From a virus, in IMG/VR virus record IMGVR_UViG_3300045988_134226: 60,175 nucleotides of DNA; one strand, 5' to 3'. The translations under genes and the position numbers were made by a program. The notes below the pieces were generated by a model. The model was not told the DNA's origin. It searched no databases and was given only the letters and a program-made list of their open reading frames with translations. Shown here piece after piece: positions 2,392-53,275 of the stretch. Position 1 is the stretch's first letter; each line of letters opens with the position of its first letter.

Positions 2392-2450
2392 CTCTGCGTT
2401 TTAAGACCGCCGTCTTATTATGGAATAGGGCTGATACGCTCAACCCTTTA
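2392..2450 (-). promoter_or_regulatory. Conserved two-hairpin RNA element, copy 1
   Basis: Minus-strand RNA has AGGGUUGA-GCGUA-UCAGCCCU, then a linker, then AAGAC-GGCG-GUCUU, then AAAACGCAGAGAGG (SD). Nearly identical to 7858..7917. Covaries with 51876..51940. Confidence 0.7.
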
Positions 2451-3011: not shown

Positions 3012-3063
3012 AGTAATTTCCTTTCATGGTTTAAGGATTGTCCGCTTCCTTATTACATTTGTA

Positions 3064-3092
3064 ATTGTACTACTTTTGTAGTATAAAATCAA
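3064..3092 (-). promoter_or_regulatory. Early promoter A with an embedded palindromic operator
   Basis: On the minus strand: TTGATT, 17 nt, TACAAT. The spacer holds the palindrome TACTAC-AAAA-GTAGTA (3068..3083; extended 3065..3086). Confidence 0.65.
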
Positions 3093-3672: not shown

Positions 3673-4962
3673 TTATAATTTCTTGTATTTTTCTATTGCC
3701 GACTTTCTCTTTTTGATTTCGTTCTTTGTTTGAGCAAAGCCCATATATTTACAGTAATAATCATTTTTGATGATACAAACGCACATTCTTTTGTAGGTCG
3801 GTACTTCCTTGAATTTTGTGCAGGTTGTATCGTCTAAATAATCATTAAATGCAATAACTCTTTTGGGTGATATTTTGCTTGTATTTCCCTTGTCTATAAA
3901 GTCTGCGTTTTCTTCTTCAAGTTCGGCTATTGTTTCATCATCAAGGCAACCGCCTTTTTCTTTCCAAAACTTGATTGAAGTATTTAGTTTTTCGAGGTAA
4001 TGTGCTTTTGTTTTTTCGTCAAGGGTATCAAGTAGAAAGTAACAATATTCTTTCCAAGTGAAATGTGCAGGCTTTTTGATAGACTTCCAACCCATAGCTG
4101 TTGTATCGCCGTACAGCCCTAAAAAGTTTACACCGTTTACCCTGCCTATCATTTTGCCCCAATTATTCGGGTCAATCACCTTGTAATACTTTAGTGTTGC
4201 TCCTGCACAATCGTTAAAGGGGCTTGCTACTCGCATTTGTTCAATGCTCATTCCTGCTTGATAATACAAATCATACAATCGGTTGTATGGCTTTTCGTAT
4301 TTTGCGTTGTATATCCATATATCTTGTGTTTCCCAATCGTAAATAGGGAAGCCGTGATAAACGCCACAAATCTGTTCAAGCACATACTTTTTACCTTTGT
4401 ATTTGCGTATATCCGTTTTGGCTCTCATATAGCGTGTGTAACTCTCGCTTGCCCTTATTCCTGTTATTACAATAGTACTTTTATTTCCGTTTATTTTCTT
4501 GTACCACACGCAAAAATTATCTTGCACCTCGTAATCAGGCTTGTTATATTCAAACTCGCAATTATCTTGATTTATAACAAAATCGTATTCAGGCATATTC
4601 CGCACCCAAATATCTTTTTTTGATTGCTCCCACGGTGTCCAATATGCACCTTGCATATTACAACAGCATTGTGCTTTAATCGGCAGGCACAACCAATACC
4701 GCTTAATGTCGCTAAACTGCTTGAATGTTTCCTCTACATAGTCGGTAGTCATTTGATATTGTGCTTCATAGTCGAGGTGATACATTGCCAACTTATCAAG
4801 CATATTATGCTCTTTGGCATAGTCATAGCAGAGGTTTAGGCAAACGCCACTATCCTTGCCGCCGCTGAACGCTACAAGAATATTATCAAATTCATCAAAA
4901 ATGTATTTTAGCCGCTCCTGTGTGGCTTCATAAACATTTTGACTTAAATACTTTTTACCCAC
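3673..4962 (-). CDS. PAPS-reductase-family PP-loop ATP pyrophosphatase (IbrA/DndC-like)
   Basis: 429 aa. N-terminal PP-loop VAFSGGKDSGV, plus a roughly 200-aa C-terminal domain. The GTG start (SD AAGGAG) overlaps the SNF2 stop by 19 nt. Confidence 0.8.
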   Translation of the reverse strand: MGKKYLSQNVYEATQERLKYIFDEFDNILVAFSGGKDSGVCLNLCYDYAKEHNMLDKLAMYHLDYEAQYQMTTDYVEETFKQFSDIKRYWLCLPIKAQCCCNMQGAYWTPWEQSKKDIWVRNMPEYDFVINQDNCEFEYNKPDYEVQDNFCVWYKKINGNKSTIVITGIRASESYTRYMRAKTDIRKYKGKKYVLEQICGVYHGFPIYDWETQDIWIYNAKYEKPYNRLYDLYYQAGMSIEQMRVASPFNDCAGATLKYYKVIDPNNWGKMIGRVNGVNFLGLYGDTTAMGWKSIKKPAHFTWKEYCYFLLDTLDEKTKAHYLEKLNTSIKFWKEKGGCLDDETIAELEEENADFIDKGNTSKISPKRVIAFNDYLDDTTCTKFKEVPTYKRMCVCIIKNDYYCKYMGFAQTKNEIKKRKSAIEKYKKL

Positions 4963-6182
4963 TCTTTAACTCCTTTCTTTGCTATTTCCTTTTTTACTTC
5001 ATCAAGCAAATTTGACTTTTTATTCAGGCTTCCTTGTATCAGCCGTTCAAGCCCTACATTGCACCATAGATTATAATAATCAACATCATATTCTTGCCCC
5101 ATTCTGTATATCCTTGCTTCCGCCTGTTCTCGCTGTGCGTAATCAAAGGAGTGTTCGGCAAATATGATATTTTTGCAGAATTGTAGGTTAAGACCGTATG
5201 CACCGCAACCATAAGTAATATATAGCACCTTTTCGTTGTCCTTAAAGCGTTGTATCGCTTCCGCTCTTTGCTCTGTGTTCATTTCACCTACAACCTTTAA
5301 CGCTCCGTCAGGTATGCTATTTAGATATTTCACAAACACAATTACTTTGCCGTCAATATCATCAATAAGCCGATTGAGTTTCAAGCATTTTTCGGTTGCA
5401 TTGCAATAATGAGATTGCAACAGTTGTGTTAATGCGAAAAAATCAATGTTATTCATATCGTCAAAGCACTTGTTTAAATAGTCGGTTTTAATAAATTCGT
5501 ATTCGTTAAGTTCTGCCGCACTCATTGAATAGGCTATATCGTGATACGCTTTCCTTGCTTCAATATCAAGTTCACAATCGAAAATATACGGTTGTATGAG
5601 GGATATTAGATGTTCAATGTTGTATTGCTCTTTTACCATTCCTTTTAACTTTCCACGAATGTAATACTCGCAATAGGTGTCTTTGAAATGGTTGTAACTC
5701 ATATTGAGGATTTTAGGGGATAAAAACTGCATTTGCGTCCAAAGGTCAAGAACATTCTTTGATAGTGGCGTGCCGTTCAAAATCAATTTGTAGGTTGCCA
5801 ACTCGCCGATTTTCAATATTCTTTTGGTGCGGTTGGCTTCTTTGTTTTTGATTTTCAGGCTTTCGTCTACTACCACAAAGCACCGCTTACCTTGCATTTT
5901 TTCAAGCGTTTCTAAATAAATGCGGTCACTCATTCCGATACTCTCGCAACCTACAACATCAAGTCGTAAATCAGCGTGCCATTTCTGCCGCTCCGCTTCA
6001 ATCTCGCCTTTCAGGGAACAAGGGCAAATCCAAAGGACATAATCAACCTTGTGTATCTTGCTTTGAATAAGGTCAAGAGCAACCTTTGTCTTGCCTGTTC
6101 CCATTTCCATAAATAACGCACCAACTTTAAGCCGTGACAGTTTGTCAAATGCTAATTGCTGTTTATTCGTCTTTGAGTTCAT
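4944..6182 (-). CDS. Compact SNF2-family ATPase/helicase
   Basis: 412 aa. Motif I MGTGKTKVA, II VVVDESLKIKN, III LNGTPLSKN, VI QAEARIYRMGQ. Confidence 0.85.
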   Translation of the reverse strand: MNSKTNKQQLAFDKLSRLKVGALFMEMGTGKTKVALDLIQSKIHKVDYVLWICPCSLKGEIEAERQKWHADLRLDVVGCESIGMSDRIYLETLEKMQGKRCFVVVDESLKIKNKEANRTKRILKIGELATYKLILNGTPLSKNVLDLWTQMQFLSPKILNMSYNHFKDTYCEYYIRGKLKGMVKEQYNIEHLISLIQPYIFDCELDIEARKAYHDIAYSMSAAELNEYEFIKTDYLNKCFDDMNNIDFFALTQLLQSHYCNATEKCLKLNRLIDDIDGKVIVFVKYLNSIPDGALKVVGEMNTEQRAEAIQRFKDNEKVLYITYGCGAYGLNLQFCKNIIFAEHSFDYAQREQAEARIYRMGQEYDVDYYNLWCNVGLERLIQGSLNKKSNLLDEVKKEIAKKGVKEWVKSI

Positions 6183-6606
6183 CAGGTACTTTCACCTCTT
6201 GCGGTTGTAACATTTTATTTTTAGGTGTTTGTGTTTGACGCATATAATTTTTATACGCCTTGTCTTGTTCAAACAGTTCTTTCGGCTGTTCGTTGCTTTG
6301 AAAATCAGTATCAAACATTTCTTTCAATATATCGTGAACATTTTTAACACCCTCAATACTAAAATTGTAATCAGCATAAATTTGCCTGCCATTTACAAAT
6401 ATAACCTTTCGTGGTTTTCTTCCATTATGATTGCAAGGATAGTTATAACCAACCTTTCCGTTATCGTATTCCACATTGCAACGCCACCATACATTCAACT
6501 TGTCTTTATTATTTTTTAAATCCTCTGCATATGTTTCCGAGGTTGTAGCAAGGACTAAATCGCCCCTATTATCTGTGATTGTGATTTTAACTGCGTTGTT
6601 ATTCAT
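6163..6606 (-). CDS. hypothetical protein
   Basis: 147 aa. The start overlaps the upstream stop (ATGAATAA) and the 3' end overlaps the SNF2 start. Confidence 0.65.
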   Translation of the reverse strand: MNNNAVKITITDNRGDLVLATTSETYAEDLKNNKDKLNVWWRCNVEYDNGKVGYNYPCNHNGRKPRKVIFVNGRQIYADYNFSIEGVKNVHDILKEMFDTDFQSNEQPKELFEQDKAYKNYMRQTQTPKNKMLQPQEVKVPDELKDE

Positions 6607-7430: not shown

Positions 7431-7847
7431 TTACTCCTTTGTCCAATAGTTACCGATACAACCGTTAGTGCTATCCCATATGTCATTAACCTTGCCGTCC
7501 ACGATTGCCACAATATGATTACCGCCTATGTGTGCAATGTAATTTTCATATCGTCTTGCTCTCTCACAAAATTCTTTACCTGTGTATTTTGTGTTATCTG
7601 CTTTTCTCGGCTGTTTGTGCATTACCCAACCTTTAGCCTTTAGATAGCGTTTATATGTATGTGGGTCATCAACAATATATCCGTATTTAATACCCACTTC
7701 AGTTAATTCCCTTACGGTTTGTTCCCAAGACTGATTTAACGCCGTGCATATCGCTCTTATCACGCAATCTCCACCAATTTTATTTTTAGAGTTTGCGTTG
7801 TAATAGTGAAATGTACTTGTGTCTTGATACTTTTCTTGCCTTTTCAT
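7431..7847 (-). CDS. hypothetical protein, possibly a papain-fold Cys/His enzyme
   Basis: 138 aa. GGDCVIRAI (Cys) and GGNHIVAIVDG (His) followed by NDIWD resemble a Cys-His-Asp arrangement. The function call is weak. Confidence 0.6.
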   Translation of the reverse strand: MKRQEKYQDTSTFHYYNANSKNKIGGDCVIRAICTALNQSWEQTVRELTEVGIKYGYIVDDPHTYKRYLKAKGWVMHKQPRKADNTKYTGKEFCERARRYENYIAHIGGNHIVAIVDGKVNDIWDSTNGCIGNYWTKE

Positions 7848-7857
7848 TTGAATACCT

Positions 7858-7917
7858 TTCTGCGTTTTAAGACCGCCGTCTTGTTATGGAATAGGGCTGA
7901 TACGCTCAACCCTTTAG
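7858..7917 (-). promoter_or_regulatory. Conserved two-hairpin RNA element, copy 2
   Basis: One mismatch to copy 1 across the roughly 55-nt core. Same context: after first gene 7928..8182 and before the SD/start of 7431..7847. Confidence 0.7.
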
Positions 7918-7927
7918 AAGCGTTAAA

Positions 7928-8182
7928 TTAAAATCGTTCAAAAACTGTTATACAACAATCATTTGCCAATCCAAACATTATATCTTCAATCTCACAATCT
8001 GTTGTGCTGTGTTCTTTAATATCGGTTGCGATTTTTTCAAGGTCATTAGTAGTTGCGTGTTCCAAACTGTTTACGAAAGTAAGCATATTATCATAGGCTT
8101 CGCAATCGCCGTTTGTGTACCAATTATTTTTAATACATTCTGTTCTTACATCAGACATTGATATTTTTCTTGTTTCTTTCAT
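7928..8182 (-). CDS. hypothetical acidic protein (first gene behind operator promoter C)
   Basis: 84 aa with SD AAAGGAAT. Confidence 0.65.
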   Translation of the reverse strand: MKETRKISMSDVRTECIKNNWYTNGDCEAYDNMLTFVNSLEHATTNDLEKIATDIKEHSTTDCEIEDIMFGLANDCCITVFERF

Positions 8183-8230: not shown

Positions 8231-8259
8231 ATTGTACTACTTTTGTAGTACAATTTCAA
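8231..8259 (-). promoter_or_regulatory. Early promoter C with a perfect palindromic operator
   Basis: On the minus strand: TTGAAA, 17 nt, TACAAT. The perfect 22-bp palindrome TTGTACTAC-TTTT-GTAGTACAA lies at 8232..8253. Confidence 0.7.
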
Positions 8260-8358: not shown

Positions 8359-8427
8359 GATATTGAAAGAGGATAGCAATGTATTATTTGCTATAATCTA
8401 ATTAACATCACATAAAGGGTGGTTAAT

Positions 8428-8682
8428 ATGGTACTAAATCAAAAACAACTTATTGAGTATGCTATCAAGGGTGTAAATGCCGACATTGGTAAAATTGAGC
8501 GGTCTATCAGGAGGGGCGAAAACTTATTACTTGCTATTGAAAAAGGTATTGCACAAACTAACAAAACACCATTAGAGGTTAAACAATCTATTCAAAAGAA
8601 AAAAGCAGAGGTTGAGCATTTAACATTTACGGTTATGAAATTAAAATGGGAATTGTCCGAGTTAGAGGAAAAAGAGCAATAA
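8428..8682 (+). CDS. hypothetical coiled-coil protein (lone plus-strand gene)
   Basis: The track ORF starts at 8419. ATG at 8428 has SD AAGGGTGG. Flanked by operator promoter C' and a bidirectional terminator. Confidence 0.65.
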   Translation: MVLNQKQLIEYAIKGVNADIGKIERSIRRGENLLLAIEKGIAQTNKTPLEVKQSIQKKKAEVEHLTFTVMKLKWELSELEEKEQ

Positions 8683-10793: not shown

Positions 10794-13433
10794 TTAATAT
10801 TCATAGACACAACGCAAAACTACATCGTTTCGCTCGTCTTTATCGTTGTTGAAACTTCCTTTGATACAATTATCGTGAATATAAATACTCTTGATAATAC
10901 GGCGTTCTGTGTCAACATCATTTACATTACTGCCCATATATCTCGGAATATCACAATAGAACGCTTTACCGCCCCAAGTTCCGCCTGTCGGGTTGTGCTT
11001 CGGTATCATTGTTGTAACAAAGTCGCTGTCGTTTGCTTTCTTTGTGTCTTTGTCGTAATCACTCCAAAGTAAAAGCCAACCGTTACGGCACTCGGATAAC
11101 TTCTTTGACGGTGTAACTGTCTGCGGTGTGCTATTAGGACTTGACATATAAGCCGCTCCTGTCCAAAGCGGTGCAGGTGACGCTTCAAATATAGCTTTCC
11201 AATCTCGCCAAGTACCATTATCAACATAGCCTGTGTAAACACTACCTCTACCGCCAAACGCCATTACCCAACCGTACTTTGCTGAACCTGTCTTATGTAC
11301 CATAAAACGGAACGACTCAATACTGTTCGGGTTATTTGTTGTGCCGATTGAAGCATAAGCAGTTGTCATTCCTGAACCAAGAGCCTTAATTTTTGCAACA
11401 ACATCTTGATTAGCCCAACTAACCTCTACATCACCGTCGTCCGCTGTCATTTGCAACGATTTAGCAATATAAGCGGAATTATGATTGTGATTTGTGTTTG
11501 ACTTACCTGCAAGTGCTGTATTGATAACCTTGTTTTGTACGGGGTTGGTACTTGAAGCACTCAACGCTGTATCAACGGTTGTCTTGTTTGCACCTGTTGC
11601 AATGCCGTTAAGTTTTGTTTTATCCTCTTTACTCATAAAGCCGTTTGCAGTAGTTGAAGCGGCACTATGGGTATGTCCTGTATTGGCTTTACCGCTTAAC
11701 GCTGTTGCAAGCCCTGTCACATCACTTTGAGCGTGTGTATGTGCTGTCGGTGCCATACTTGTAGGTTTATCCGACAAATCGTTATAACTGCCTGATGTGG
11801 CTACATCTGCAAGCCCTGTAATCATACTTGCAGGGTGTGAGGTCGGGTGAGTGTATTTATTCGCACCTGTCGCAATTCCTGCAAGTTTGGTCTTTTCGTT
11901 AGTTGTATAATCGTTTGTTGAAAGTCCTTTACCTGAAACCTTGTCAACCTTATTACCCAAAGCCGAATTTACAGTTTTGTTTTGAACAGGATTTGTGCTT
12001 GTGCTTGACATTGCGGTGTCAACTACTGTTTTATTTGCTCCTGTGGCAATTCCGCTCAATTTTGTTCTTTCGTCAGCCGTCATAATCTTTTTAGCGGTTG
12101 TTTCCGAAACATCATCAAGTGAATGTGTGTGACTTGCGGAAGCCTTACCGCTCAAAGCCGTGTCAAGACCTGTGATGTCGCTTGTAGCGTGAGTGTGTGA
12201 AGCGTTAGCCTTATTGCCTAATGCTGTTGCAAGTCCTGTTATATCGCTCTGTGCGTGGCTGTGAGTAGCGTTTGCTTTGCCACTTAAAGCGGTTGATAAG
12301 CCTGTAATATCGCCTTGTGCGTGAGTGTGTGTGCTGTCTGCCTTGCCTGCTACTTCCGTTTCAAGTGCTTCAACATCATCATTTGTCGCATACTGTGAGT
12401 GAGTATGATTTGCGTCTGCTTTTCCTGCAAGCTGTGAAGCTGTTGCAAAGTATGTAGTATCGTGACCGTCAAGCATATCTGCGTCAAGTCCGCTGTTTTG
12501 ACCGTCAACAGTCTTTAACTTTGTCAATATCTCGCTTGCTGTGATTACTGCACCGCTCTCGCCTTTGTCGCCTTTCTCACCTTTGTCACCCTTGTCGCCT
12601 TTATCGCCCTTTGCTCCTTTAAGGCTTGCTACCCAATCGGCTTGTGTTCCAACAAAGCCATTATCAAGGGCAATTTGATAAGCACTTTTACCGTCTTGAC
12701 CGTCTGCACCTGTTGCACCTGTGTCACCCTTAACGCCCTGAATACCTTGTATTCCTTGTTCGCCTTGCTCACCTTTGTCGCCCTTGTCACCTTTTGCACC
12801 TTTTAGGCTTGCAAGTTGTTCCGCTGTAAAATCGTCATAAGTGAATGGGTCGCCCTTATCGCCCTTATCGCCTTTGTCACCTTTTGCACCGTCTACACCG
12901 TTAGTGCCGTCTATACCATTAGTGCCGTCTATACCATTAGTGCCGTTTGCACCGTCAGCGCCCTTGATAATTACAGGGGCAGGGTTAGCAAGTCCTTTGT
13001 TGTTGCTCCAAGACAAAACGCCGTCACTTGATACGCTCGGTGTAAAGGTTGCACCGTCCTCACCGTCTGCTCCTGCTGTGCCATTATCCCAAAGTGATAC
13101 CTTTTCGGCTGTGATACTGTCAAGCACGGATTTGTTTGTATGATTGTGTAAGTCAGTTGTATTTGCTTTACCGTTAATATCTGCTTGCAATTCGTCAATT
13201 TTAGCAGATAAAACCTTTCCCGCTCTTTTGTACTGTATTTCATCAGTTGAACCAACCCAATAGTGAACATCACTAAAACCTGAGCCGTCAGTATTGTATA
13301 CCATTCCTACAAGATTACCGCTTGTGTATTCACTTTCGGTGATTTCTATGTAATATTCATTTGTGATTGTTGTAGCACTTGAAATTAATTCAATAACTTC
13401 GAGATTGGTATTAAGATGTGCATAATACTTCAT
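10794..13433 (-). CDS. Tail fibre with collagen-like G-X-Y tracts and repeated HxH motifs
   Basis: 879 aa. Three Gly-X-Y blocks (GADGANGTNGIDGTNGIDGTNGVDGAKGDKGDKGDKGD..), eight HxH motifs in roughly 22-aa repeats (..HTHAQGDITGLSTALSGKANAT..) and a globular C-terminus. Confidence 0.85.
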   Translation of the reverse strand: MKYYAHLNTNLEVIELISSATTITNEYYIEITESEYTSGNLVGMVYNTDGSGFSDVHYWVGSTDEIQYKRAGKVLSAKIDELQADINGKANTTDLHNHTNKSVLDSITAEKVSLWDNGTAGADGEDGATFTPSVSSDGVLSWSNNKGLANPAPVIIKGADGANGTNGIDGTNGIDGTNGVDGAKGDKGDKGDKGDPFTYDDFTAEQLASLKGAKGDKGDKGEQGEQGIQGIQGVKGDTGATGADGQDGKSAYQIALDNGFVGTQADWVASLKGAKGDKGDKGDKGEKGDKGESGAVITASEILTKLKTVDGQNSGLDADMLDGHDTTYFATASQLAGKADANHTHSQYATNDDVEALETEVAGKADSTHTHAQGDITGLSTALSGKANATHSHAQSDITGLATALGNKANASHTHATSDITGLDTALSGKASASHTHSLDDVSETTAKKIMTADERTKLSGIATGANKTVVDTAMSSTSTNPVQNKTVNSALGNKVDKVSGKGLSTNDYTTNEKTKLAGIATGANKYTHPTSHPASMITGLADVATSGSYNDLSDKPTSMAPTAHTHAQSDVTGLATALSGKANTGHTHSAASTTANGFMSKEDKTKLNGIATGANKTTVDTALSASSTNPVQNKVINTALAGKSNTNHNHNSAYIAKSLQMTADDGDVEVSWANQDVVAKIKALGSGMTTAYASIGTTNNPNSIESFRFMVHKTGSAKYGWVMAFGGRGSVYTGYVDNGTWRDWKAIFEASPAPLWTGAAYMSSPNSTPQTVTPSKKLSECRNGWLLLWSDYDKDTKKANDSDFVTTMIPKHNPTGGTWGGKAFYCDIPRYMGSNVNDVDTERRIIKSIYIHDNCIKGSFNNDKDERNDVVLRCVYEY
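12540..12960 (-). repeat. Coding tandem repeats (9-bp and 18-bp units) encoding collagen-like tracts
   Basis: For example, accattagtgccgtctat occurs twice in tandem with a degenerate flanking copy near 12897-12950, and ggcgacaa/ggtgacaa 9-mers occur at 12550-12610 and 12770-12880. Confidence 0.85.
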
Positions 13434-13558: not shown

Positions 13559-14851
13559 TTAACGGTACAATATTTGAATGTGTGTATCATCAAGCCTTTT
13601 CATTACTCTATAACCTGTATCGGCTTTTGTTGCCTTGCCACCGTCAGCCACCTTGCAATATCCATTGACTACACAAGTGCCGTCGTCAACAATAATCAAT
13701 TTACCCATAAGACCAACGCAAGCCCATTCTTTCCTAAACTCACGGCTTGTGTATTCTTCATCAGGGTTATAGTCAGGGTTTACAACAAGTCTTGTAATAG
13801 TGTGTGCAGGAATGACCTCGCCTGTTTTATCGTCTGTGTTTTCGGGTACTTCTACTGTTTCTGTGAGCGGTTGACCGAACACATCTTTTTTATACATTCC
13901 GTGCCAATTTTCCGACTGAACATCACCAACAACAGAGGGGTTAGCTGAAATTACACCAAGAATATAATCATCATTAGCGTTTGCAAGTCTTATCTTGTCA
14001 CCGTCTAAAGTAACAAATAAACCTCGTCTATCCTCACTGTTTTTATTGCCGTCTTGCCACTCAAAATATTCTGCGTAATCTGCCCCACTTGAACCAAAGG
14101 AAGATGTACCCATACATTTGCCGTCTGCTCTAATTCTAAATGCGTTTGCTTTTACTGTTTGTGTGCCATTTCCGATAATAAAAATAGAATTATCGGCTGA
14201 TTGGTCGTCTTGGTCTGTGCAACCTGTTTTTTCTGCGTTGTGTTTTCCTGTAACAAATTGATAAGCATTTGCTAATGTGGCATATCCTCCTGCGTGAGAA
14301 TAATCACCGAATGCTTGTGTACGAAAACCCTCTGCGTGGGAACTTCGACCACTTGCCGTTGTGTATGAACCCTCTGCGTGGGAACTTTGACCACTTGCCG
14401 TTGTTTTCCAACCCTCAGCGTGGGAACACGCACCGCTTGCGGTTGTAGCACGTCCTTCTGCGTGTGAATAATTACCGCTTGCAGTTGTACTGCTTCCCTC
14501 TGCGTGAGAATAATCACCGCTTGCAACATTTCCGTCGTTTATATTGGTAGTTTTGTCAGTACTTCTATTTCTGTAATCGTTAAAAATCTCTGCTCCCTCA
14601 CCTGCTACAGCAGTTGTTTCTGTTCCTTCATCTACGATTACCGTTTGTCCTGCTAACGATTTGCCGACTTCCGATTTTTTTACAACTTCTGTTTGCAGTT
14701 CAGTAAGGCAAATGCCGTACTTATTGAACATATAATTAAAGATAGGTGCAGGCGGTTTATATCCTGCTTGAAAGCCGTTTGTTTTGAGCGTTTCGCTCGG
14801 TGCAGTACCCTTATTAGTCCATAAGGGCGGTGCTGTAAATGTTGTTGCCAT
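13559..14851 (-). CDS. Tail fibre/appendage protein with YadA-head-like (Hep_Hag-type) repeats and a C-terminal intramolecular-chaperone-like domain
   Basis: 430 aa. Six 14-aa repeats (YSHAEGSSTTASGN, YSHAEGRATTASGA, ...). The downstream ADYAEYFEW region resembles Peptidase_G2/IMC domains (from memory). Confidence 0.75.
   Translation of the reverse strand: MATTFTAPPLWTNKGTAPSETLKTNGFQAGYKPPAPIFNYMFNKYGICLTELQTEVVKKSEVGKSLAGQTVIVDEGTETTAVAGEGAEIFNDYRNRSTDKTTNINDGNVASGDYSHAEGSSTTASGNYSHAEGRATTASGACSHAEGWKTTASGQSSHAEGSYTTASGRSSHAEGFRTQAFGDYSHAGGYATLANAYQFVTGKHNAEKTGCTDQDDQSADNSIFIIGNGTQTVKANAFRIRADGKCMGTSSFGSSGADYAEYFEWQDGNKNSEDRRGLFVTLDGDKIRLANANDDYILGVISANPSVVGDVQSENWHGMYKKDVFGQPLTETVEVPENTDDKTGEVIPAHTITRLVVNPDYNPDEEYTSREFRKEWACVGLMGKLIIVDDGTCVVNGYCKVADGGKATKADTGYRVMKRLDDTHIQILYR
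14280..14530 (-). repeat. Roughly 42-bp coding tandem repeats (about 6 units)
   Basis: Recurring ctctgcgtgggaac..ccacttgccgttgt units encode the xSHAEGxxTTASGx repeats. Confidence 0.8.
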
Positions 14852-18414: not shown

Positions 18415-18457
18415 AATTTCAAATTTACGGAGTGTAGGGTCAATCCCTACATACAAT

Positions 18458-18486
18458 ATTATAGCAGAATAACTTTTTGATGTCAA
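18458..18486 (-). promoter_or_regulatory. Consensus promoter P18 inside the tail/baseplate module
   Basis: On the minus strand: TTGACA (18481-18486), 17 nt, TATAAT (18458-18463), followed by ATT. The -35 starts 6 nt after the upstream stop. Confidence 0.65.
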
Positions 18487-18492
18487 TAATTG

Positions 18493-39643: not shown

Positions 39644-39693
39644 CCACAAAAGGTATAAATTTTAATGGTGTAAAGCTATTTTTACACAATAAT

Positions 39694-39722
39694 ATTATAC
39701 TACAATAATAACTTTTTTTCAA
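39694..39722 (-). promoter_or_regulatory. Near-consensus promoter P39
   Basis: On the minus strand: TTGAAA (39717-22), 17 nt, TATAAT (39694-99), then ATT. The -35 starts 6 nt after the stop of the regulator gene. Confidence 0.7.
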
Positions 39723-39728
39723 GTATTT

Positions 39729-46484: not shown

Positions 46485-46490
46485 GAGAAT

Positions 46491-46519
46491 ATTATACCAA
46501 AATAGTAATTATTTGTCAA
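46491..46519 (-). promoter_or_regulatory. Consensus promoter P46
   Basis: On the minus strand: TTGACA (46514-19), 17 nt, TATAAT (46491-96), then ATT. Confidence 0.7.
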
Positions 46520-46555
46520 TATCAAATTTGTTTACTTTGATAACAAAGTGACGCA

Positions 46556-51680: not shown

Positions 51681-51866
51681 TTAATAAACAAGTTCCATTC
51701 CAAAATTCTTTATGATTTTCTCGGCTTCTACCTTACCTCCAATGTTATACGGCGAGCCTATGCGTGTTATTCCTGTGTAATGCTCCTCGCCGTTTTCAAA
51801 GCGGTGTAATTCCACTTTTGCACCTTTGTCATATCCTTTTGTTACCGCCCATCTGTTTACTAACAT
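51681..51866 (-). CDS. hypothetical protein
   Basis: 61 aa. The start follows two-hairpin element copy 3. Confidence 0.55.
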   Translation of the reverse strand: MLVNRWAVTKGYDKGAKVELHRFENGEEHYTGITRIGSPYNIGGKVEAEKIIKNFGMELVY

Positions 51867-51875
51867 TTTAATTGT

Positions 51876-51940
51876 TCCTTTCTGCGTTTAAGCACGCCTG
51901 CTTGTGTGGAATAGGGCTTGTTAAGGACAAACCCTTTAGA
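51876..51940 (-). promoter_or_regulatory. Conserved two-hairpin RNA element, copy 3 (diverged, with compensatory changes)
   Basis: Minus-strand AGGGUUUGU-CCUUA-ACAAGCCCU and AAGCA-GGCG-UGCUU. Both stems are retained relative to copies 1 and 2 through paired substitutions. Confidence 0.7.
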
Positions 51941-51946
51941 AACCTA

Positions 51947-52366
51947 TTATTTTTGAATTTCTTTCATTAACTCAACAACTTTAAATGCGTCTTGTGGTAA
52001 TTTAAAATTACCTTGTTCGTTAATGTGTCCGTAAAATCTTTCTTCGTTCTCGCCACATCTGCAACAAAAACTTCTTATTAAATGTAAATCTTCCATAAGT
52101 TGATAGTCTTTGTTTCCTTTATATCCTATTGGATAGCAATGAAAAGTGTTGATGTAATTTTCCATTCTTTCTGTTTCGGTAAAAACTTCATCCGCTCTGT
52201 AATTTCCAATTACTTCGTGGTCGTCTGCGTAATGTGCTTTAATCATTACTCCACCACCTACTGAATATCTGCCGTTCTCAAAAACTACTGAACAATCATC
52301 ATATGCTCTTAATGTGTTTTTAACCTGCTTTTGAATTGCCTTTGGTAAATACTTTAATTCTGTCAT
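51947..52366 (-). CDS. hypothetical protein (first gene behind operator promoter B)
   Basis: ATG at 52366 (MTELKYLP..) has SD GAAAGGAAT, homologous to the leader/SD of 2448..3011. Confidence 0.65.
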   Translation of the reverse strand: MTELKYLPKAIQKQVKNTLRAYDDCSVVFENGRYSVGGGVMIKAHYADDHEVIGNYRADEVFTETERMENYINTFHCYPIGYKGNKDYQLMEDLHLIRSFCCRCGENEERFYGHINEQGNFKLPQDAFKVVELMKEIQK

Positions 52367-52420
52367 AATCTTAATTCCTTTCACGGTTTAAGGATTGTCC
52401 GCTTCCTTATTACACTTGTA

Positions 52421-52448
52421 ATTATACTACTTTTGTAGTATTTTTCAA
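52421..52448 (-). promoter_or_regulatory. Early promoter B with a palindromic operator
   Basis: On the minus strand: TTGAAA, 16 nt, TATAAT. The perfect palindrome ATACTAC-TTTT-GTAGTAT lies at 52424..52441. Confidence 0.7.
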
Positions 52449-52914: not shown

Positions 52915-52954
52915 GGTGCTATCGCTAAATATTTAATAAGAGGTGGAAAAAATA

Positions 52955-53275
52955 GTGTGTACTATCGGCACGAAACTGAAAACATTGAGGAAAGGCAGAA
53001 AACTAACGCAACAAGAATTATCCGAAAGAATGGGCTTAAGCCGTGCCACTATAAGTAATTATGAGGTCGGGCGTCGTTCGCCACATTTATCCGATTTACG
53101 CCGCTTTGCTGAATTTTACGGCGTTAGTCTTGATTACTTCGGCGTTACTACAACAGACGAAAGTTTTGAGTTGTTAAGCCGTGCAAAAAGCATTTTCCTT
53201 AATGAAACTATCCCAAAAGAAGAAAGGGAACATTTATACAAGGAAATAATGAAAATGTATTTGAATATGAAATAA
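52955..53275 (+). CDS. XRE-family HTH repressor (CI-like candidate)
   Basis: GTG at 52955 lies 8 nt after AAGAGGTGG. The track start at 52943 lies inside the SD. Contains LTQQELSERMGLSRATISNYEVGRR. Confidence 0.75.
   Translation: MCTIGTKLKTLRKGRKLTQQELSERMGLSRATISNYEVGRRSPHLSDLRRFAEFYGVSLDYFGVTTTDESFELLSRAKSIFLNETIPKEEREHLYKEIMKMYLNMK

Follow-up and report, generated by a model that had tools for sequence, protein, structure and literature searches.

Which role can be ascribed to a short structured RNA that occurs three times in the genome of a phage, between genes of its early operons? The initial annotation described this element as two hairpins always located after the first gene of such an operon, and compared it with the antitermination signals lambda nutR and HK022 put. 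The element is a ~45-nt H-type pseudoknot RNA plus an optional second hairpin, and it is widespread in phages of gut and rumen Clostridia, lying between the genes of their early operons. Tentatively, and with somewhat less than even confidence, we regard it as a cis-acting intercistronic 'punctuation' element that would process or insulate RNA, rather than as a lambda-style antiterminator.

The three copies in the phage genome

The window, i.e. the whole stretch of 60,175 nucleotides that was analysed, contains a circular phage genome of 60,120 bp, bases 1-55 being exactly repeated at 60121-60175. This 55-bp terminal overlap is probably an artefact that arose in assembling a circular contig. 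The phage proteins encoded in the window include a portal protein and a helicase, and the genes around the three copies of the element are carried by the minus strand. The copies had been placed on this strand at 2392-2450, 7858-7917 and 51876-51940, and a covariance model trained solely on relatives outside the window, then run on the window, recovered all three; the best other match in the window scored 11 bits (E about 1).

From 5' to 3', the motif exhibits a strand of 3-6 nt (S1a), the linker UUCU, the 5' strand of the long helix P1 (RRR-GGG-YKN..), the strand S1b and a short loop that is often A-rich. These are followed by the 3' strand of P1 (..GCCC-Y-A-YY, with the A bulged), CCA, the optional hairpin P2, an A-rich linker and a Shine-Dalgarno (SD) sequence. 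The features of the three copies are as follows.

Copy 2
7869-7923, minus strand: complete motif, S1a through P2; covariance-model match at 7887-7927, 53.1 bits, E 1e-9
7928-7930 and 7845-7847, minus strand: stop codon of gene 1 and start codon of gene 2
7920-7923, minus strand: S1a, ACGC, pairing with the loop GCGU at 7902-7905 to form helix S1, which covaries in the family
7916-7919, minus strand: unpaired linker UUCU, the pseudoknot loop L1, conserved in relatives
7890-7915, minus strand: long helix P1, with covariation of AAA/U-UU, of GGG/CCC and of the distal pairs
7906-7915, minus strand: 5' strand of P1, AAAGGGUUGA
7902-7905 and 7901, minus strand: P1 loop, comprising S1b and L3
7890-7900, minus strand: 3' strand of P1, UCAGCCCU(A)UU, with the bulged A at 7892
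7887-7889, minus strand: unpaired CCA directly 3' of P1, conserved in the family
7869-7882, minus strand: optional hairpin P2, AAGAC-GGCG-GUCUU
7855-7860, minus strand: SD sequence GAAAGG, preceded by the A-rich linker 3' of P2

Copy 3
51890-51945, minus strand: complete motif; covariance-model match at 51907-51949, 60.5 bits, E 3e-11
51943-51945 and 51924-51926, minus strand: pseudoknot strands S1a (AGG) and S1b (CCU)
51938-51941 and 51907-51909, minus strand: UUCU and CCA
51927-51937 and 51910-51921, minus strand: 5' and 3' strands of P1, with the bulged A at 51912
51890-51903 and 51876-51882, minus strand: P2 and SD sequence
51947-51949 and 51864-51866, minus strand: stop codon of gene 1 and start codon of gene 2

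Copy 1
2403-2450, minus strand: 5'-truncated motif; partial covariance-model match at 2421-2450, 35.2 bits, E 7e-6, model positions 12-43 only
2440-2449, 2436-2439 and 2424-2434, minus strand: 5' strand of P1, S1b and 3' strand of P1
2421-2423 and 2403-2416, minus strand: CCA and P2
2388-2394 and 2376-2378, minus strand: SD sequence and start codon of gene 2

Promoter regions
8231-8259, minus strand: promoter-like TTGAAA-17-TACAAT over the palindrome ATTGTACTAC-TTTT-GTAGTACAAT, upstream of the copy 2 operon
3064-3092 and 52421-52448: equivalent promoter/palindrome sites of the copy 1 and copy 3 operons

Copies 1 and 2 share a 71-nt block, SD sequence included, with 94% identity and with unrelated genes around it. 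As had been noticed earlier, they differ by a single base between UAAAGGG and AAAACGCAGA. The compensatory changes reported for copy 3 are also present: AAGAC/GUCUU becomes AAGCA/UGCUU in the short stem, and GGGUUGA/UCAGCCC becomes GGGUUUGU/ACAAGCCC in the long stem. The strand bias of the long stem holds as well, a U.G pair on the minus strand corresponding to C.A on the plus strand. Compared with shuffled sequence, the folding z ranges from -1.8 to -3.5 on the minus strand and from -0.1 to -1.8 on the plus strand. The sequence AAACGCAGARAGG occurs three times in the window, versus 0.24 expected. The P2 stem varies in copy 3 and in three related loci (L163, L141 and L067), its loop remaining GGCG or GGCA.

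Both stems of the two-hairpin description are real; the description missed the pseudoknot, the extension of the stem and the truncation of copy 1, and its second hairpin does not define the element. The boundary first drawn must also be moved, the true start lying about 6-10 nt further upstream in copies 2 and 3. Copy 1 exhibits neither S1a nor UUC, which are replaced by the 3' end of gene 1. Its gene-1 stop codon UAA (2448-2450, the UAA of UAAAGGG) is formed by the last U of UUCU and the first two A residues of P1. As copy 1 is otherwise conserved without S1a, part of the function may not need the pseudoknot.

The context described for the three copies is indeed shared: each follows the first ORF after a sigma-70-like promoter overlapping a palindrome of the GTACTAC-TTTT-GTAGTAC type. 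The leader and promoter of the copy 1 and copy 3 operons (3018-3084 and 52375-52441, respectively) are 96% identical over 67 nt, although the two operons begin with different genes. It seems that the regulatory cassette and the RNA motif travel as modules. On the opposite strand, upstream of the copy 3 operon, an HTH transcriptional regulator (PHROG 8/3) is encoded at 52943-53275 (plus strand), which is a candidate repressor of the shared palindromic operator. An 87-aa ORF at 8419-8682 (plus strand), divergent from the copy 2 operon, showed no family match. Comparison with Pfam and PHROGs was uninformative as to the function of the genes that flank the copies in the window. Within the copy 2 operon (minus strand), a PAPS-reductase-like protein (PHROG 2302) is encoded beside a DNA helicase (3673-4962 and 4944-6182), and this pair may constitute a DNA-modification or host-takeover module.

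Other repeated features were observed elsewhere in the window. A conserved block of ~36 nt is present in four minus-strand copies (18453-18488, 32009-32044, 39689-39724 and 46486-46521), and a scan revealed a perfect TTGACA-17-TATAAT promoter at 46491-46519 (minus strand), with TG before the -10 hexamer. These blocks form a second class of promoter, which differs from the early promoters with their palindrome. Collagen-like 9-nt periodic repeats are located at 12544-12921, inside an 879-aa ORF (10794-13433), and 42-nt tandem repeats at 14285-14524, in a neighbouring 430-aa ORF. Both ORFs probably encode tail-fibre proteins.

Relatives and fold of the RNA family

A first loose pattern scan of IMG/VR returned mainly chance matches, among which about twenty exhibited an unrequired TTCTA ahead of AAGGG and the same gene context. 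With a specific pattern, 72 loci were found in viral contigs and 45 in genome contigs, the latter including chance matches. The true genome-contig loci belong to Oscillospiraceae, Ruminococcus, Eubacteriales and Clostridia MAGs and to Flintibacter muris. In metagenome contigs, 41 candidates passed the stem and pseudoknot filters, with clear members from gut- and rumen-type contigs, and relaxed viral scans yielded further variants of the motif. When all scans are pooled, the family comprises about 170 copies in 154 loci. The conservation of some consensus parts is partly imposed, because the scans required them; each part was relaxed in turn, never all together. ORF calls in these loci were mechanical.

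One full-length motif is carried by a cultured isolate, Flintibacter muris DSM 110149 (NZ_CALPCP010000004.1; 6431-6467 in locus L190), presumably in a prophage, and this strain could serve as a wet-lab system. Pattern matches in Streptococcus, archaeal, Paracoccaceae and other MAGs were discarded as chance, as they exhibit no stem, pseudoknot or matching context. The Streptococcus pluranimalium and S. moroccensis matches (L180, L191, L197, L208, L211, L214 and L215) are multi-copy exact matches to the pattern in repeated IS-like coding sequence, which calls for caution in pattern-only searches. Megablast of 12 kb against GenBank phages revealed no close phage relative. With a 60-nt consensus, blastn returned chance Thermus phage matches only, because BLAST seeds are broken in the variable central part of the motif. 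Two other conserved sequences emerged from the scans. The first, in L224, L231, L235, L252 and L232, has half-sites only (GTTGATTCTAAAGGG ... TTGCCCTAT, then ..TAAGGGGTC in several) and could be a distant relative or an unrelated element. The second, a atcttaatagacTTCTAAAGGGATAAAATTTAAGCCCTATactagct block, recurs in L242, L244, L256, L258, L227, L230 and others without pseudoknot features; this set of contigs includes very large phage contigs, several of about 228 kb.

The initial annotation had proposed a covariance model and a database search as a check of its RNA, and in the relatives recovered by the pattern scans every helix covaries. The interleaved order S1a-S2a-S1b-S2b of an H-type pseudoknot is observed, and both helices show covariation. 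In the pseudoknot, the loop of the long hairpin is matched by 3-6 complementary nt immediately ahead of UUCU, and over 20 distinct sequence combinations are represented. At least 3 consecutive Watson-Crick pairs are present in S1 for 95% of 79 distinct members, versus 39% when partners are permuted (maximum 56% over 1000 permutations). For 39 members of fixed geometry, 93.6% of the cells of the full pseudoknotted structure are paired; shuffles gave 82.9 +/- 0.9 (0 of 500 reached the observed value), a statistic that overstates independence because the sequences are phylogenetically related, and slid controls gave 31-48%.

P1 is longer than first drawn: it is extended by pairs of AAA (in UUCUAAA) with U-UU (in CCCUAUUCCA), which flank the bulged A. 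These pairs become G-C in 8-11 of the 39 fixed-geometry sequences. An unbiased R/Y scan of the stem base revealed AAA/UAUU (77), GAA/UAUC (8) and GAG/CAUC (7), and more rarely GGA/UACC (3), AGG/CACU (2) and GGG/CACC (1), mismatches being a minority. The U.G pair is conserved in 41 of 56 and in 38 of 39 sequences. The conservation of this pair and the co-orientation of the motif with its flanking genes indicate an RNA on the mRNA strand. The covariation in about 170 relatives supports the proposal that the coding (minus) strand specifies a functional RNA whose structure is maintained by compensatory changes.

Around these helices, about eight unpaired nucleotides are near-invariant (UUCU, the bulged A and CCA). 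UUCU is present in clear relatives from scans that did not require it, with CUCU (L363/L366) and an irregular copy (L360) as exceptions. With a pattern that did not require CCA, this triplet was found directly 3' of P1 in about 88-90% of members, and CAA, UCA, CCG or CCU in about 10%. P2 begins immediately after CCA in 50 of 91 members, has a GNRA loop in 19 of 74, and is missing in about 20-25% (none found in 17 of 91, plus weak calls).

Placement between genes and possible functions

The motif is tightly anchored to the ends of cistrons. Between the end of the upstream stop codon and UUCU there are 2-17 nt (mode 11), and S1a abuts or overlaps the stop, lying 0-10 nt after it. The next start codon is located 18-61 nt after CCA, about 40 nt past the end of the motif. 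The flanking genes are small, diverse and unrelated (45 clusters for 77 downstream genes and 66 clusters for 88 upstream genes), and some members have no same-strand gene downstream. As no ORF family of at least 70 aa is common to more than 14 of 151 loci, the RNA would act alone or with host machinery. Arrays of 2-5 motifs per operon occupy successive intergenic gaps, e.g., L168 with five copies within 3 kb, L486 with three within 1 kb, and L087 and L444 with three each. The position after the first gene, which had been described as constant, applies to all three window copies; in the family, a crude count places the motif after the first gene in 40 of 117 cases and after later genes in 53 of 117.

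The same slots are occupied by self-cleaving ribozymes. Twister-P5, twister-P1 and Hammerhead_II are found in related loci, on the same strand as the motif and the genes. Most of them lie 1-20 nt after a stop codon and all of them 11-40 nt before a start codon, which is the slot geometry of the motif itself. In L130, the order is gene, motif, gene, twister, two genes, motif and gene. RAGATH-16 and RAGATH-33 also occur in related loci. RAGATH-33, RAGATH-16, gut-2 RNAs and tRNAs were observed in motif-bearing contigs (L058 2373-2485, L147 1959-2030, L053 365-412 and L186 1064-1111). That the motif shares a slot with ribozymes may signify no more than a tolerance of these gaps for any structured insert.

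The tentative reading as intercistronic punctuation can be described in four steps. The fold would form once the ribosome terminating on the upstream gene has cleared the motif. Cleavage of the transcript would then occur where UUCU and CCA, both conserved and single-stranded, meet at the base of P1. The cutter would be either the RNA itself, as a new class of self-cleaving ribozyme, or a universal host enzyme of the RNase P type, which would read the pseudoknotted helix and CCA as an acceptor-arm mimic. Finally, the neighbouring cistrons would be uncoupled, with a structured end left on each, presumably the job also done by the twister and hammerhead ribozymes that occupy these slots in sister phages. 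The RNase processing site that had been listed as a fallback in the initial annotation is close to this reading. We infer the cleavage itself, its site and the enzyme from sequence comparison. It is possible, but rather doubtful, that the motif is a new RNA-cleavage signal, either as a small ribozyme that cleaves itself or as a minimal pseudoknotted RNA that mimics an acceptor arm and is cut by RNase P. RNase P is a concrete candidate because the strand order recalls the TYMV acceptor-arm pseudoknot; as in RNase P substrates, a helix is followed by a single-stranded CCA in about 88-90% of members. Against it, the stacked length of P1 and S1 varies (about 11-15 bp by inspection of members, versus a fixed 12 bp), no T-loop is present, and CCA is not invariant. 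Against cleavage in general, no known ribozyme model matches the motif, and the members that lack a downstream same-strand gene do not favour punctuation.

The motif could instead be a passive structural module that is not cleaved, the pseudoknot insulating the downstream ribosome-binding site from upstream sequence and perhaps also blocking exonucleases. It may likewise cap the 3' end of the upstream cistron or act as a 5' roadblock for RNase J-type decay. This is consistent with the very tight abutment to the stop codon, with the members that end an operon, with the unstructured A-rich linker ahead of the SD sequence, and with the absence of an apparent partner protein. Stop-adjacent pseudoknots can be remodelled by terminating ribosomes, as is the H-type upstream pseudoknot domain of TYMV, located at a stop codon (PMC6265322), and the spacing between stop and motif implies that the pseudoknot of the motif must be remodelled likewise. 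Nevertheless, about eight near-invariant unpaired nucleotides are not needed for a roadblock and are kept across very divergent phages, and a simple GC-rich hairpin would suffice. We consider such a module unlikely.

A binding site for a trans-acting factor or a small ligand tuning downstream translation, such as a T4 gene 32-like operator or a riboswitch-like aptamer, appears improbable; the translational operator listed as another fallback in the initial annotation is thus weaker than the RNase processing site. The H-type pseudoknot, its conserved loop nucleotides and the A-rich L3 of many members are reminiscent of small pseudoknot aptamers, and the motif is placed upstream of an SD sequence, at or near which the P1 loop could pair in the clade of the window (ACGC or AAGG downstream). 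However, the loop is not significantly complementary to the SD sequence when the whole family is considered (the observed value is reached by 25 of 500 permutations), and the SD sequence is located 25-45 nt away, outside the conserved fold. The unrelated downstream genes do not form a riboswitch-type gene class, no protein encoded by ORFs of at least 70 aa co-occurs, and neither PreQ1 nor any other riboswitch model matched copy 2 and six loci at E <= 10.

Processive antitermination, in which the nascent RNA would modify RNA polymerase for read-through of downstream terminators, was suggested by the analogy with lambda nutR and HK022 put. Like these, the motif is a cis-acting early RNA, and in the window each copy comes after gene 1 of an operon under promoter/operator control, in the same way as nutR comes after cro. 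After the first gene is also the commonest single position in the family by the crude count given above, and, as with put, no protein partner is needed, at least none of 70 aa or more encoded at the locus. In other respects the analogy is not supported. Lambda nut is one promoter-proximal site per operon acting on downstream terminators, whereas 3-5 copies of the motif can be found in one operon (L168, L087, L444 and L486). Terminator-like hairpins are not enriched downstream (0.19/kb, versus 0.33/kb upstream and 0.31/kb on the other strand), and a scan revealed no intrinsic terminator on the gene strand within the three operons of the window. The motif has no boxA or boxB: among 22 one-mismatch matches to boxA (CGCUCUUUA-like), none adjoins a copy on the minus strand, and P2, the candidate equivalent of boxB, is optional. 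Lambda nut also has a cognate arginine-rich antiterminator of the N type; for ORFs of at least 70 aa, no family is shared beyond 14 of 151 loci. HK022 put consists of two adjacent stem-loops, both required, with no pseudoknot; in the motif, the first hairpin is part of a pseudoknot and the second is missing in about 20-25% of members. Its anchoring to stop and start codons, at positions interchangeable with those of self-cleaving ribozymes, also argues against antitermination, which we regard as very improbable.

Finally, a recombination linker or selfish repeat comparable to T4 PeSL elements or integron attC sites, serving only as a substrate for gene-cassette exchange without RNA function, would fit the 71-nt block shared by copies 1 and 2 between unrelated genes, the resemblance of copy 1 to a recombination junction inside the motif, and the cassette-like layout of small unrelated ORFs each followed by a motif, but it is scarcely credible given three helices, pseudoknot included, kept by compensatory changes despite sequence drift, a conserved U.G pair that fits one strand only, constant co-orientation with genes, and no recombinase common to the loci.

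Three further candidates were rejected. A frameshift or read-through stimulator is not indicated, as the distance from stop to motif falls in all three frames and no recurring slippery site was seen upstream. Mimicry of a T-loop or anticodon loop by UUCUAAA is incompatible with the pairing of AAA. A CRISPR-repeat mimic and an attC-like DNA site both conflict with the covariation of the pseudoknot and with the U.G pair.

The presence of a third, unrelated RNA in the slots of twister and hammerhead, in some cases in alternation with twister within one operon, suggests that all of them perform a common task where cistrons meet, and it provides a comparative handle on the role of the many twister and hammerhead ribozymes of phage genomes. 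If the punctuation element is indeed a cleavage signal, early polycistronic transcripts would be cut into single-gene units (in the RNase P version, a form of 'tRNA punctuation' in bacteriophage mRNAs), and gut and rumen Clostridia phages would use the motif interchangeably with twister and hammerhead. The motif would then stand for a new class of ribozyme or of RNase P substrate, and at about 45 nt it would provide a compact part with which genes in synthetic operons of Firmicutes can be insulated. Even without cleavage, it is an abundant, well-covarying pseudoknot of human-gut and rumen phages that is absent from Rfam, and it could help in annotating early operons.

Comparison with known RNA families

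The motif was compared with Rfam 15, including twister, hammerhead, pistol, hatchet, twister-sister, HDV-like, RAGATH-n, PreQ1, TLS and drum. At the gathering score, no match was obtained on the motif in the window and 27 related loci. At E <= 10, drum (RF02958) was the only match for copy 2 and six loci. This weak local similarity (AAGGGUUGnGCG) scored 13.9 bits, versus a gathering score of 43, with E 2.2 in one copy; it is absent in six other members and was attributed to chance. A search of full-text literature gave no description of the motif sequence, the core sequences matching unrelated primers only.

With the twister and hammerhead ribozymes and RAGATH RNAs, the motif shares the phage lineages, the strand and the intergenic slot. 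It is similar to small ribozymes in its size, its pseudoknot, its about 8-10 conserved unpaired nucleotides and its optional peripheral hairpin, on which a GNRA loop is often found. In contrast, it has no sequence or structure match with Rfam ribozymes and RAGATH, even at E <= 10, and we know of no small ribozyme class with the same strand order. PreQ1-I likewise forms a small pseudoknot of the H type, whose L1 contains UUC and whose L3 is A-rich; compared with it, the motif exhibits a long second helix and an SD sequence outside the fold.

Following the helix assignment of the acceptor-arm pseudoknot in the TYMV tRNA-like structure, the motif exhibits the same order of S1a, pyrimidine L1, S2a, S1b, short L3, S2b and single-stranded CCA, L1 being CUCU-like in TYMV and UUCU in the motif. 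The TYMV 3' end reads ...CCCCUCUUCCGAGGGUCAUCGGAACCA (PMC6265322). Unlike TYMV, the motif has a helix of 7-11 bp with a bulged A, versus 4-5 bp, it comprises no T, D or anticodon-like domain, and its CCA is internal to the mRNA rather than at a 3' terminus. No Rfam TLS model matched, and ARAGORN found nothing tRNA-like in the window.

As an H-type pseudoknot at a cistron boundary, the motif also resembles the T4 gene 32 leader pseudoknot and the TYMV upstream domain. These are gene- or virus-specific, whereas the motif is generic, with many copies between unrelated genes. We rate the motif as a new family among the structured RNAs that lie between cistrons in phage regions rich in ribozymes, one that bulk RNA catalogues may include, among them the catalogue drawn from IMG/VR (PMC10690425), with about 8,500 anonymous RNA candidates.
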